Shown here: one piece after another, positions 51,911-64,000 of the stretch | Position numbering within the stretch: position 1 is the first letter of the stretch | Layout: each line of letters opens with the position of its first letter | Assembly (NCBI GenBank): GCA_022564195.1 | Contig: JADFLW010000003.1 | Location: 12,747-76,746 of the forward strand | Reading direction: 5' to 3' | Source of the DNA: Patescibacteria group bacterium | GTDB lineage: Bacteria; Patescibacteriota; Microgenomatia; UBA1400; Chisholmbacteraceae | DNA: 64,000 nt | The notes under the pieces: generated by a model | What the model saw: the letters and a program-made list of their open reading frames with translations, nothing else | What the model was told of the DNA's origin: nothing | Database searches by the model: none | Position numbers and translations under genes: made by a program

Positions 51911-52001
51911 AGGAAATTCTTCTTAGGGAAAAAAGAAACCAAATAAGAACGCGTGTATGTAGGGATTGAAGAGAAAGAGAAAGCCAAACCCCAAAAAGGG
52001 G

Positions 52002-52032
52002 AGGTGAGATAGGCTCAGAGCCCACCTCACCT
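52002..52032 (-). terminator. Candidate intrinsic terminator of the island operon
   Basis: Minus strand: AGGUGAG-17 nt-CUCACCU followed by CCCCUUUUUGGGGUUUGG, about 170 nt after the stop of the last gene. Confidence 0.4.
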
Positions 52033-52199
52033 GTTCTCTCGCCGCCTCACAAGGCCATTGTAGGCCCAGAGTCCCAGGCCTCCCGCACATAGTGGGAAGA
52101 CGGAGGAAAATGACGAGATTGCTCAACACCTCTCGCACTTCAGTAAGCTCATGGATGCGATCCGACCGATAGCTAAGCGGCCGTGTGATCACGAGCGCG

Positions 52200-53639
52200 T
52201 CAGCTCTCCGCAACAGCTGCTGGGCGAGCAGGAGCCGGACGTCCGAGCCCGAGCTCCTCGGCGTAGTAGGTGATCGGTTTATCCCTCGTCTCCCTGATGA
52301 GGTCCTTTTGGGCGAACACCCACCGATTGGTAGCCTCATTGCCATTCCAGTAGACAGCTTTCACCCGCTTGATTTCGTCATACTGATCACTGGTGGTAAG
52401 GTTTTTAAGCTTCCGGCACTTCGACCTACCCACATTGATCTTCGGATGGTCAGCTAAAGGGTTGTCGGTGAACAACCACAAGAGAGTCGAGAGCGAAAGC
52501 ATCTTCTCCCGAGCAAAGTAGGCTTCGGTGGTCTGCTCCCCTCCTTGCTCATAGAGAACGTCGACGATGAGTGTCAGGCTTCGTTCCTTGCCGTCTCCGT
52601 TCGGCCGCGAGTCCCTGTACTGGCCTTTGATCGCCAGAAGCTCTGTGCCAAAGGCGATTGATTGGACGGAAATGGCTCCCGGAATCCAAGGCTGGCCTTC
52701 GGTTTTGAAGTCGCCTTCCGTTCTGAAGACCGGGCTGCGGGAATGGCCCTGGACGACCTTCGTCCCCGAGGTCTTGATCGCGATCACGCGTTTCCCGGAA
52801 GCCGTCAGCCGCCGAGCGCGCTTGATGAAAAACTCTCCCATCTGCACCCAGGCGAACATCGGGGTGACCCCTTCTGGCGCAGCATAGAGCTCCACTCGAG
52901 GATCTTCCAGATGGCCCATGAACAGCATATCATCGCTGAGGTCCGTGTAGTCCTCTTCCCGCTCTCCGGCGATGCAGGCCATGAGATGAAAGTCTGAGTA
53001 CTGATCCTCCTCCATCATCAACATCGCTGCCCTAAAAATCGCCCGTAGATTCATGGTCTTGCCAACTCCACCTGGACCGGCAATCCATAGACCGTGGCCT
53101 TCGCCGAGCGGCCATCCGCCACGGAAAATGATCCCGAGGACAGGTTCGTACTCTTCGTCCCAGGAAACCCGGCGATCGAAGTAGTCGAGTGGAAGAGGTT
53201 TGTTGGGATAGCGGCCGAAGATCTTGTTCTGATCCTCCTCGTCCGGCTTCGCAACCAAAGTGGGCCAATTTCGGACCACCGCAGCGTCCGTTTCCCCGTT
53301 GACGGAAATGATCTGAGTGATAGGGTCCGGAGGAACCTCTTCCTCGTTGTCGGATCTGCTGCTCGATCTGTCAGGCGGCTCCCGATAGAGGATAAGATCC
53401 CCTTCCCGTAATCCCCACAGCTCCACAGTAGGGGAAGGAATGAATCGGCCCCTTGCAAGGGACTCAGCAAAAATCTCACTCCTGGGGAATTTCGCCAACT
53501 TCTTGGCGTTTGGCGGGATGACCACCGTATCTGGAGTTCCCCATTTGCCGTATACAGGTCTCTGGCTCTGAGGGAGCTCCGAGAGGGGTCGTTGTAGTAC
53601 CAACCCACGCTTCGGTTTATCATCTTGTGTACTCAACAC
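52200..53639 (-). CDS. Divergent Rho-family ATPase homologue (Rho-like OB region + RecA-fold ATPase)
   Basis: By-eye collinearity with E. coli Rho:
- LREGDLILYREPP...IISVNGE vs LRTGDTISGKIRPP...KVNEVN;
- GLWIAGPGGVGKTMNL vs GLIVAPPKAGKTMLL;
- ACIAGEREEDYTDL vs LLIDERPEEVTEM;
- FIKRARRLTASGKRVIAI vs VIEKAKRLVEHKKDVIIL;
- SLTLIVDVL vs SLTIIATAL.
GTG 53639 (SD GGAAAGGAG 8 nt upstream) preferred to ATG 53699. Confidence 0.6.
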   Translation of the reverse strand: MLSTQDDKPKRGLVLQRPLSELPQSQRPVYGKWGTPDTVVIPPNAKKLAKFPRSEIFAESLARGRFIPSPTVELWGLREGDLILYREPPDRSSSRSDNEEEVPPDPITQIISVNGETDAAVVRNWPTLVAKPDEEDQNKIFGRYPNKPLPLDYFDRRVSWDEEYEPVLGIIFRGGWPLGEGHGLWIAGPGGVGKTMNLRAIFRAAMLMMEEDQYSDFHLMACIAGEREEDYTDLSDDMLFMGHLEDPRVELYAAPEGVTPMFAWVQMGEFFIKRARRLTASGKRVIAIKTSGTKVVQGHSRSPVFRTEGDFKTEGQPWIPGAISVQSIAFGTELLAIKGQYRDSRPNGDGKERSLTLIVDVLYEQGGEQTTEAYFAREKMLSLSTLLWLFTDNPLADHPKINVGRSKCRKLKNLTTSDQYDEIKRVKAVYWNGNEATNRWVFAQKDLIRETRDKPITYYAEELGLGRPAPARPAAVAES

Positions 53640-53647
53640 AAGTCTTT

Positions 53648-53679
53648 CTCCTTTCCTAGTGGGCCTCAGGCCCAACCGG
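53648..53679 (-). promoter_or_regulatory. Leader hairpin + SD motif (copy 1, before the Rho-like gene)
   Basis: RNA sense: CGGUU-GGGCC-UGA-GGCCC-ACUA-GGAAAGGAG-8 nt-GUG. Confidence 0.6.
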
Positions 53680-63397: not shown

Positions 63398-63401
63398 GGC
63401 G

Positions 63402-63956
63402 CTACCGTGGAGCTGCCGGTTCCGCGAACTCCTGAGTGAAATGGTCGATGATGTTCACTCCTCGAGGGGGCAGGAAGCTGTCGAAACCGATCAGTTCACC
63501 CGCGATCCCGATGACGATGATGATCCCGACCATGATCCCGATCCAGGTGCCTATGGGCGAAGGTGCGCCTGCTGCCGTCGGTCTCCTCACGTTTAACGGC
63601 CCGAAGAAGACCGCATAGAGAATAACCAACACACCGGCGACGATGACGTACCAGTGAATTCTCAACAGAAATCTCTCTTCGTCTTCACCTTCCTGCAGCA
63701 AGACGCCCATGAGCAAAATGCCCGTGAACGCCGTTGCCTGCAGACGCGTTCCAGAAATGGGGCCATAGTTACGCTCCCCGATTCTGGCGAGATCGATCCT
63801 CGCTGTCAGCCGCTGAAGCGGTTTCAGCAGAAGGATCGCGATCGTGTAGAGCAAAGCCAACACGATCAACGGGTTGGGCTCAAGCAGAAACTGCACAAGC
63901 CCCGAAAATGGGGTGGAAAGCATCGCCACTCCATGAGCAAAAAGTGTGTCCAACAT
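63402..63956 (-). CDS. Four-TM membrane protein, function unknown
   Basis: 184 aa. ATG lies 6 nt after SD AGGAGAG, and the stop lies 4 nt before the next start. Confidence 0.55.
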   Translation of the reverse strand: MLDTLFAHGVAMLSTPFSGLVQFLLEPNPLIVLALLYTIAILLLKPLQRLTARIDLARIGERNYGPISGTRLQATAFTGILLMGVLLQEGEDEERFLLRIHWYVIVAGVLVILYAVFFGPLNVRRPTAAGAPSPIGTWIGIMVGIIIVIGIAGELIGFDSFLPPRGVNIIDHFTQEFAEPAAPR

Positions 63957-63963
63957 AGTGGAC

Positions 63964-63997
63964 TCTCCTATCTAGGGGTGATTGATTCACCCTCCGG
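63964..63997 (-). promoter_or_regulatory. Leader hairpin + SD motif (copy 5, variant)
   Basis: RNA sense: CCGGA-GGGUGA-AUCAA-UCACCC-CUAGAUAGGAGAG-6 nt-AUG. Confidence 0.5.
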
Positions 63998-64000
63998 TCA

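Follow-up and report, generated by a model that had tools for sequence, protein, structure and literature searches.

Hammerhead ribozymes, complementary unit ends, a repeated leader RNA and a divergent Rho paralog in a gene island of a Patescibacteria group bacterium

What becomes of the RNA of an operon-like gene array when the spaces between its blocks of genes hold hammerhead ribozymes? The question is raised by a GC-rich island on the minus strand of contig JADFLW010000003.1 (assembly GCA_022564195.1) from a Patescibacteria group bacterium, of which we analysed a stretch of 64,000 nucleotides (positions 12,747 to 76,746, hereafter the window; positions below are those of the window unless another sequence is named). 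A preliminary description of this DNA read the island as four units separated by three hammerheads and ending in a gene for a Rho homologue. The units of the window stand as read, but the island comprises more than four of them: the sequence L004 continues it for at least 10 kb past the window, which holds the distal 12 kb of an island of at least 22 kb.

In the order of the minus strand, unit 1 carries the genes for proteins of 184, 592 and 127 amino acids (aa), unit 2 those for a P-loop ATPase and a peptidoglycan hydrolase of the M23 family, unit 3 that for a 540-aa membrane protein followed by small open reading frames (ORFs), and the last unit that for the Rho-family protein, here called the Rho paralog. 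Cassettes C, B and A lie between them in that order; the claim that they are homologous sequences of 0.4-0.6 kb is upheld by the repeat families D2, D4 and D5, and the cassettes of the window are 80-89% alike. A unit consists, from its 5' end, of a box, a leader RNA, a hairpin preceding the Shine-Dalgarno (SD) sequence, one to three packed genes, a strong hairpin with a pyrimidine-rich tract, and an antibox. As judged by the comparisons given below, the three hammerheads are genuine. Every unit begins with a conserved, covarying structured leader RNA that is new to Rfam, and the 5' box of each unit is complementary to the antibox at its own 3' end, before the ribozyme cut.

The three hammerheads are complete, of type III and canonical in their cores, and the cut sites proposed for them proved exact:

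53997-54062, minus strand: hammerhead A, type III, predicted to cut behind GUU, after U54056 (54056/54055); Rfam Hammerhead_3 37.3 bits, E = 3.9e-5; model R1 62.6 bits
56782-56854, minus strand: hammerhead B, type III, predicted to cut behind GUC, after C56848 (56848/56847); model R1 79.2 bits, core and helices read directly
61000-61082, minus strand: hammerhead C, type III, predicted to cut behind GUU, after U61076 (61076/61075); model R1 73.7 bits, Rfam 20.5 bits

Each copy consists, in order, of the 5' strand of helix III, U16.1, H17, the helix I hairpin, the core CUGAUGA, a long helix II closed by G10.1-C11.1, GAAA and the 3' strand of helix III. The catalytic core (C3 U4 G5 A6 N7 G8 A9, G12 A13 A14, A15.1-U16.1, H17) is complete in the window copies and in those of the related lineages L010, L014 and L018, with H17 being U, C and U in copies A, B and C, respectively, C in L010, A in L014 and U in L018. 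The core pattern CTGATGAG-N(8-38)-CGAAAC is found at two places in the window, where chance would give 0.04, and the third copy, with its longer helix II, falls outside this pattern. Folding by minimum free energy (MFE) recovers the three-way junction. Covariation was assessed on six distinct copies from four island lineages: 95.7% of the positions are paired, compensatory double changes occur in 7 of 16 pairs, a level reached by none of 500 shuffles, and slid registers drop to 26-50% paired. The core positions are invariant in all six copies, no mispair adjoins the core, and helix III is open. Minimal textbook type III hammerheads occupy the equivalent positions in L010, L014 and L018/L019; the L018/L019 copy reaches 60 bits although it was not part of the seed of R1, our custom hammerhead model. 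Hammerheads A and C are each followed, 5-6 nt past helix III, by a further TTGACAA copy (53986-53992 and 60990-60996, minus strand); hammerhead B is not.

The preliminary description also listed TTGACAA boxes and a GU-rich tract in each cassette. Both are present, but the box is the 3' strand of a conserved long-range pairing and not a promoter: its sequence is reverse-complementary to the GU-rich tract just before each hammerhead, and it also precedes unit 1, where neither a ribozyme nor a GU tract occurs. A sigma-70 scan of the cassettes found no promoter and no -10 element after the TTGACAA boxes, and because no -10 element follows them, the boxes are not sigma-70 promoters. The boxes and antiboxes are:

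61084-61102, minus strand: antibox of unit 1, GCUUCUUCUUGUUUGUGUU, complement of box 1, which precedes the gene of the 184-aa protein (duplex -28.0 kcal/mol, against -22.4 for box 2 of the same cassette)
60876-60903, minus strand: box 2, UUGACAACACAACAAGAAUAGAGCGAGG, pairing as the 5' member with the antibox at 56856-56876 (duplex -33.4 kcal/mol; alternative in the same cassette -19.6)
56856-56876, minus strand: antibox of unit 2, CCUCGCUCUACUUGUUGUGUU, identified by its duplex with box 2
56705-56722, minus strand: box 3, UUGACAACACAACAAGAU, identified from the duplex matrices
54065-54078, minus strand: antibox of unit 3, AUUUUGUUGUGUUG, pairing with box 3 and not with box 4 of the same cassette (-22.4 against -12.5 kcal/mol)
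53785-53807, minus strand: box 4, specific to the Rho unit, UUGACAACCAAAUAAGAACGCGU, conserved in L012, L017, L010 and L013
51937-51954, minus strand: antibox 4, ACGCGUUCUUAUUUGGUU, exact reverse complement of box 4, followed by a U-tract, at the island end (duplex -33.2 kcal/mol)

In duplex matrices computed across lineages, the box of the antibox's own unit beats or equals the box of the same cassette, which lies 150 nt downstream, in 10 of 10 comparisons. When the two ends of unit 2 are folded together, the gain is -33.2 kcal/mol, compared with -17.5 +/- 3.4 for shuffled ends. A box of another sequence, AACCAAAUAAGAACGC, marks the Rho unit, and its exact complement of 15-16 nt is located 52-252 nt past the stop codon of the Rho paralog in the window and in L012, L017, L010 and L013; none of 1000 shuffles matches this pair, and its sequence differs between the five lineages in a compensatory fashion. 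In units 1, 2 and 3 the hammerhead begins 0-6 nt past the antibox; every hammerhead cassette has helix III of its ribozyme directly adjoining the antibox, an arrangement suggestive of a link at the RNA level. We also considered the inverted pair as a helix within the cassette ('P0') that would bracket the ribozyme; this was rejected, the duplex matrices favouring pairing within the unit.

The leader RNA and the hairpin-ACUAC element in front of the SD sequence had been noticed as a shared structured leader; the covariance model R2 recovers the leader RNA, and the repeat family D1 the hairpin-ACUAC element:

60762-60833, minus strand: leader RNA motif of unit 2 (P1/P2/P3, CAAYGA loop), model R2 89.5 bits
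56582-56652, minus strand: leader RNA motif of unit 3, model R2 76.4 bits
53687-53782, minus strand: leader RNA motif of the Rho unit, model R2 32.9 bits, E = 6e-6
60733-60750, minus strand: hairpin-ACUAC element just 5' of the SD sequence of the ATPase gene (family D1), with copies at 56553-56569, 54693-54709, 53728-53745 and 53656-53673

The leader of unit 1 and its box lie beyond the end of the window, at 9688-10000 of L004. In the leader fold, P1 encloses the hairpin P2; next come 'AAU' and a 4-bp hairpin with a CAAYGA loop, and a further hairpin then stands directly before the SD sequence. Model R2 finds the leader before the ATPase gene, the gene of the 540-aa membrane protein, the Rho paralog gene and nearly every unit in six lineages, with more than 20 copies on the sense strand, at least 10 of them outside the R2 seed, whereas the 52 kb of host DNA contain none. 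Across the copies, 93.8% of the positions pair, and 15 of 17 pairs have double changes; RNAalifold finds the structure independently, with double changes in 12 of 19 pairs. No Rfam family matches the leader in the window or its relatives. Upstream of the Rho paralog the hairpin-ACUAC/ACUAG element occurs twice (53728-53745 and 53656-53673, minus strand).

The strong hairpins after the stop codons and the final hairpin with its U-tract are likewise where they had been described, and a small conserved hairpin accompanies them:

61195-61224, minus strand: strong hairpin after the stop of the 127-aa ORF (cassette C)
56898-56916 and 56920-56937, minus strand: two strong hairpins after the stop of the M23 hydrolase gene (cassette B)
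54182-54204, minus strand: strong hairpin of cassette A
52002-52032, minus strand: 14-bp hairpin followed by CCCCUUUUUG, after the Rho paralog gene
61137-61156, with a second copy at 54124-54143, minus strand: small conserved hairpin CAAUCCCA-loop-GCGGGGUUG upstream of the antibox

The small CAAUCCCA...GCGGGGUUG hairpin is found as well in L017 (2733-2752) and L014 (15761-15780), and its stem covaries, being CCC/GGG in the window, CUC/GAG in L017 and CGC/GCG in L014. The cassettes of L017 and L012 and one cassette of L019 have no hammerhead and carry, at the same position, a perfect hairpin of 18-22 bp, a duplex that we take to be within the size range of an RNase III substrate. Hammerhead-free cassette segments of this kind lie at 2805-2850 of L017 and 3415-3460 of L012. 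A permissive Rfam scan detected no known ribozyme in the hammerhead-free cassettes of L017, and the possibility that the module of L007/L017 is a degenerate hammerhead was rejected, the hammerhead core being absent.

The identification of the last gene as a Rho homologue holds in a family profile, in an AlphaFold2 (AF2) model and in Foldseek comparisons:

52200-53642, minus strand: divergent Rho-family protein, 480 aa from GTG 53642 (profile, AF2, Foldseek)

Gene callers gave lengths of 499, 491 and 480 aa, and GTG 53642, behind GGAG, suits the family alignment best. The protein alone gives weak matches, all of them to Rho, and a word-index protein search returned only the protein itself; an exhaustive HMMER scan of 1.84 billion proteins yielded 32 representatives of the family. 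A profile of 27 members matches Rho in the PDB with E = 4.7e-47 over Rho residues 75-410, which extend from the RNA-binding region as far as the C-terminus; second among the families come the type III secretion system (T3SS)/FliI ATPases at 1e-19. The AF2 model has a predicted local distance difference test score (pLDDT) of 86.8 and a predicted template modelling (TM) score of 0.89. Its top 50 Foldseek matches in the PDB are all Rho, at full length, with at most about 470 aligned columns, target-normalised TM-scores of 0.64-0.80 and 16-19% identity. The best NCBIfam matches, TIGR00767 rho (18.8 bits, cut-off 509) and NF041509 Rho2 (22.8 bits, cut-off 628), fall short of their thresholds. By these comparisons the clade is separate, tiny and very divergent, and the protein is not a rho ortholog. 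The divergence within the alignments A1 (the 27 Rho-paralog members) and A7 was too great for scanning loci with them.

Some species are known to have a second, shorter Rho (PMC11347177). Like Rho and this paralog, the island protein has a full-length Rho fold with an N-terminal region that aligns to the RNA-binding part, and its family conserves the Walker A motif, the catalytic Glu/Arg of GER, the SLT motif and the C-terminal P-x-D-x...R motif of Rho. In contrast to Rho, to which it is only 16-19% identical, its OB (oligonucleotide/oligosaccharide-binding) segment is shortened, and its clade, which is far more distant from Rho than the short second Rho is, is always encoded by the last gene of the island. 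The window protein keeps the Walker A motif GPGGVGKT and GEREED; its residues ~285-294 read VIAIKTSGTK versus VVAFLDSGTK in relatives, so that all three assemblies with the element have Thr at the place of the Walker-B Asp, which the family consensus (VVLxLDS) keeps. Four of the 27 family members have an N-terminal domain of the MazE/AbrB type.

The reading that we favour, with a probability of roughly 60%, is that the array would be transcribed through, that the ribozymes would release its units, that the released RNAs would close on themselves by box:antibox pairing, and that the Rho paralog would act on the island's RNAs. Cuts between 61076 and 61075, 56848 and 56847, and 54056 and 54055 would release an RNA of 4228 nt encoding the ATPase and the M23 hydrolase, an RNA of 2792 nt encoding the membrane protein and the small ORFs, and the mRNA of the Rho paralog. 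Closure of each released RNA would shield both of its ends and would set the 3' end, a 2',3'-cyclic phosphate, beside the 5'-OH within a re-formed hammerhead; since an internal unit RNA would have the ribozyme body of the preceding cassette at its 5' end and the 5' strand of helix III at its 3' end, the two ends could rebuild a nicked hammerhead. The hairpin-protected 3' ends of the preliminary description do not fit these coordinates: the strong hairpins lie 90-130 nt upstream, and the predicted ends directly follow the antibox. In ribozyme-free sister islands RNase III would probably cut the 18-22 bp hairpin in an equivalent way. For the Rho paralog, predicted to be a Rho-fold hexameric RNA-binding ATPase, the RNAs of the island itself are the most likely substrate; it might load at the CA-rich boxes or the CU-rich tracts, and its role could be termination, RNA remodelling or interference with the host Rho.

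Several observations weigh against this reading. Transcription through the cassettes, cleavage and end pairing are predictions from the sequence. The Rfam hammerhead model, by which the preliminary description proposed to check the ribozymes, reports copies A (37.3 bits) and C (20.5 bits) with permissive filters, below the gathering score of RF00008 (48.5 bits), and does not report copy B even permissively; at the gathering score it finds no hammerhead in the window, where only a tRNA and a glmS ribozyme are detected. The shortfall is mainly explained by inserts of 18-29 nt in the long helix II; the permissive scan also missed the minimal hammerheads of L010. Hammerheads are missing from the related lineages L017, L012 and L013 and are therefore dispensable or at least replaceable. 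Folding the ends of unit 3 together gives a modest gain, equalled in 3 of 30 shuffles, and the antibox of this unit does not favour box 3 over boxes 1 and 2. A core is common to the boxes of units 1-3, and the preference for the own unit comes partly from short unit-specific extensions, and in the MFE co-fold of unit 2 the terminal CUGUC pairs with the helix II insert, not with helix III. DNA rather than RNA could be the level at which the inverted repeats act; the hairpin and U-run after the Rho paralog gene may end transcription before antibox 4; and the window Rho paralog, which lacks the Walker-B Asp, may be inactive.

Three other explanations have to be weighed. The units might be independent, each cassette comprising a terminator and a promoter/operator, the antibox being an inverted copy of the operator (e.g., for DNA looping), the GCAC-TTTGACA box a DNA site for a host sigma factor or an island-encoded regulator, and the hammerheads only insulating the units against read-through. 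The box does contain a perfect -35 hexamer and precedes the first unit, which has no hammerhead; a strong hairpin follows every unit, some lineages do without hammerheads, promoters of the candidate phyla radiation (CPR) are poorly known, and an RpoA-CTD-like protein (CTD, C-terminal domain) of L014 is related to a 462-aa island protein. We nevertheless consider independent units unlikely, given that no cassette has a -10 element at sigma-70 spacing, that the post-stop hairpins are without U-tracts, that the antibox abuts helix III in every hammerhead cassette, and that the complementarity extends in a unit-specific and compensatory manner, which a common operator would not need.

Still less probable appears to be the possibility that the cassettes are selfish or decaying repeats, similar to miniature inverted-repeat transposable elements or functionless retrozymes, with the hammerheads as passengers and the inverted repeats as terminal repeats. 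The 100% identity of two L010 cassettes over ~470 nt, the 80-89% similarity of the window cassettes, the patchy presence of hammerheads and the breaking of contigs at cassettes would all be expected of such repeats, but they do not account for cassettes that hold the same positions between units in lineages whose proteins are only 25-47% identical, that conserve the leader, box and SD hairpin with covariation, that have no copy outside the island in 52 kb of host DNA, and whose antiboxes match the box of their own unit across kilobases. That the box and antibox are sites of DNA recombination, as in invertons or cassette shuffling, is suggested by the inverted repeats of 11-21 bp that flank each unit; we regard this as very improbable, because unit order and orientation are identical in all six lineages, some pairs need G-U wobbles on the sense strand, and no recombinase was found in profile scans of the island proteins.

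Within the favoured reading of through-transcription, ribozyme release and end pairing, a more far-reaching version can be formulated, which we advance tentatively and think rather doubtful: the hammerhead pairs together with box:antibox pairing would make circular or stably end-joined mRNAs of 4228 and 2792 nt, on which the Rho motor of the island would load to remodel or regulate them, with the RNase III hairpin as the equivalent in ribozyme-free islands. The predicted junction of the unit 2 circle would be ...CTTGTTGTGTTTTTCTGTC joined to GTCCGCTATACGTCGGACC, and that of unit 3 ...TTGTGTTGTTTTCTGTT joined to GTCCGATATACGTCGG.

The island stands out from the host DNA by its composition, GC content rising from 0.44-0.51 to 0.52-0.62 at ~52 kb of the window, in agreement with the GC-rich region described as beginning at ~51.93 kb. 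The long ORFs described on the opposite strand exist; those such as 58291-59685 on the plus strand are antisense artefacts of the high GC content. The genes were confirmed on the minus strand from 63402-63956 down to 52200-53642, and packing within units is as tight as claimed (gaps of 4 nt and 9 nt and an 8-nt overlap). Apart from the Rho paralog, they are:

63402-63956, minus strand: 184-aa protein with several transmembrane segments, first gene of unit 1 (ORF; homolog in L014)
61619-63397, minus strand: 592-aa polytopic protein with a lipobox, its C-terminal half rich in R/G/P (homologs in L014 and L010)
61243-61626, minus strand: 127-aa protein with two transmembrane segments, overlapping the 592-aa gene by 8 nt (ORF)
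58417-60717, minus strand: 766-aa P-loop NTPase, Walker A GKGERGKT (Walker A/B motifs in alignments A4/A5)
56944-58407, minus strand: 487-aa membrane-anchored M23 peptidoglycan endopeptidase (Pfam PF01551, Peptidase_M23, E = 8e-17)
54915-56537, minus strand: membrane protein of 540 aa starting at GTG (homologs in L014, L012 and L013)
54226-54886, minus strand: small ORFs (19-aa transmembrane peptide, ~76-aa ORF, 116-aa ORF with two transmembrane segments)

The lipobox of the 592-aa protein, read by eye, is LAAC, and the protein has no Pfam match; its C-terminal half (61619-62600, minus strand) is R/G/P/S-rich, of low complexity and without homolog coverage, and adds to the local GC peak. The ATPase has only a faint match to an FtsK-like P-loop in Pfam (E = 0.085), and its profile matches PDB structures, ArsA and EccC, at the level of the P-loop only. 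A word-index search of 5.8 billion proteins returned a single non-identical homolog, the AF2 model failed (pLDDT 31), and no family could be assigned from Pfam, PHROGs, NCBIfam, PADLOC, the PDB profile, two word-index searches or the AF2 model. The homolog of the M23 hydrolase in L012 additionally carries SLT_2. Among the small ORFs, a hydrophobic mini-ORF of 19 codons, MFQNVQLKWLGYALLLLLI (54827-54886, minus strand), lies directly 3' of the 540-aa gene with a good SD sequence and is followed by a hairpin and a degenerate leader copy. The ~76-aa ORF probably starts at TTG 54672, behind the degenerate leader and a hairpin-ACUAC-SD element, and the 116-aa ORF with two transmembrane segments occupies 54226-54576 (minus strand).

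Together, the island proteins would make up a membrane complex that includes a peptidoglycan hydrolase and an ATPase of a novel kind. Their description as a secretion/transfer-like gene set did not hold up: apart from the M23 domain, they match nothing among type IV secretion system (T4SS), VirB4, PHROGs, PADLOC and NCBIfam models, the ATPase has no VirB4, AAA_10 or TraG match, and only the M23 hydrolase would fit a T4SS or conjugation system. The T4SS known from Patescibacteria has a VirB4 detectable with hidden Markov models (PMC12102498) and the ATPase gives no such match; the label is therefore only an analogy. No prophage genes (capsid, terminase, portal, integrase) were found, PHROGs matches coming from the M23 domain only, and PADLOC reported no anti-phage defence. 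The proteins encoded further upstream in the island match neither Pfam nor PHROGs.

FtsZ places the host in the Patescibacteria (Microgenomates group), near Levyi-, Gottesman- and Woesebacteria (64-70% identity), and the same element is present in three metagenome assemblies (source samples ERZ23499034, ERZ24945681 and ERZ27267515). Syntenic islands, with the three genes of unit 1, the ATPase-M23 pair, the membrane protein and the Rho paralog, occur in L014, L010, L012 and L017 and partly in L013 and L009, with proteins 25-48% identical. They adjoin different housekeeping genes in different lineages and always exceed their flanks in GC content; overall, six or more lineages possess the syntenic island, at differing places in the chromosome. 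It was not found among the GTDB species representatives by Rho-paralog peptide patterns, and IMG/VR contains no relatives of the Rho paralog or the ATPase. Metagenome contigs break inside cassettes (L002/L003 at position 1, L014 at position 15839), one of them ending exactly at the 5' strand of a hammerhead; since cassette repeats fragment assemblies, the island is probably under-sampled in metagenome-assembled genomes.

Between the host DNA and the island end lie a tRNA-Val(CAC) (51497-51572, plus strand) and a small cupin gene (51575-51910, plus strand), and in L017 a tRNA is located ~1 kb past the Rho paralog, with a gene for a YafQ-like toxin between them. These arrangements hint at tRNA-linked integration; a second copy of the tRNA-Val 3' end was not found in the 10 kb available upstream, which stops short of the far island boundary. 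In L004 a 3.56-kb block with genes for proteins of 462, 110, 142 and 64 aa and a leader copy is duplicated at 100% identity (1-2842 and 3565-6406); L005 apparently has a single copy of it, and the tandem duplication is either real or an assembly artefact. An island protein of L014 (5111-5842) has an RNA polymerase alpha-CTD and shares 28% identity over 158 aa with the 462-aa protein (3262-4650 of L004); it is possibly an island-encoded transcription factor. Elsewhere in the host DNA, a glmS ribozyme (32506-32716, plus strand; 55.8 bits, above the gathering score) precedes the glmS gene (32824-34605).

The island offers a conserved setting, open to comparative analysis, in which bacterial hammerheads can be studied and in which the cut site is coupled to the pairing of mRNA ends, and it offers a testable function for these ribozymes, namely that unit mRNAs are processed at defined sites and then have their ends joined or protected. 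Three new objects come with it, from a host group that is almost unstudied: a covarying leader RNA family, a tiny divergent Rho clade tied to a single island, and a CPR gene set of membrane proteins, ATPase and hydrolase. The combination, which the preliminary description could not match to any described system, is indeed undescribed in the literature that we searched, where we also found no report of natural hammerhead-made circular mRNAs in bacteria. Operons with multiple hammerheads are already known, whereas the end pairing, the repeated leader RNA and the Rho copy are new.

The closest known arrangements are the several same-sense hammerheads around genes or short blocks in horizontally acquired DNA of Clostridium scindens, Azorhizobium caulinodans and Agrobacterium tumefaciens (Perreault et al., 2011; PMC3088659), for which operon-length cutting was predicted and cleavage was shown in vitro; circular or spliced products were raised for these clusters but not detected. 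As in those polycistrons, the multiple same-sense hammerheads of the island are predicted to split a long transcript. They differ in being all of type III with long helix II inserts, in lying within 0.4-0.6 kb cassettes that carry a leader RNA, and in a predicted cut immediately after the complement of the unit's own 5' end. The setting also differs, with a CPR host, no phage genes or integrase, a Rho paralog at the end of the array, and replacement of the ribozyme by a long hairpin in sister islands. The leaders resemble the nut, put and boxA antitermination leaders in that a short conserved RNA element with a small hairpin opens every transcription block of a mobile element, but they match them in neither sequence nor structure, and no factor of the N, Q or LoaP type was identified. 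With the circular RNAs of viroids and retrozymes the island shares direct repeats, each with a type III hammerhead, that flank a segment whose ends could re-pair through helix III and its flanks, which would juxtapose the 5'-OH and the 2',3'-cyclic phosphate. Unlike theirs, the segments of the island are chromosomal, protein-coding and 2.8-4.2 kb long, and their circularisation and replication would be hypothetical. If true, the circular mRNA reading would make the island a bacterial chromosomal counterpart of viroid and retrozyme circularisation, applied to mRNAs.

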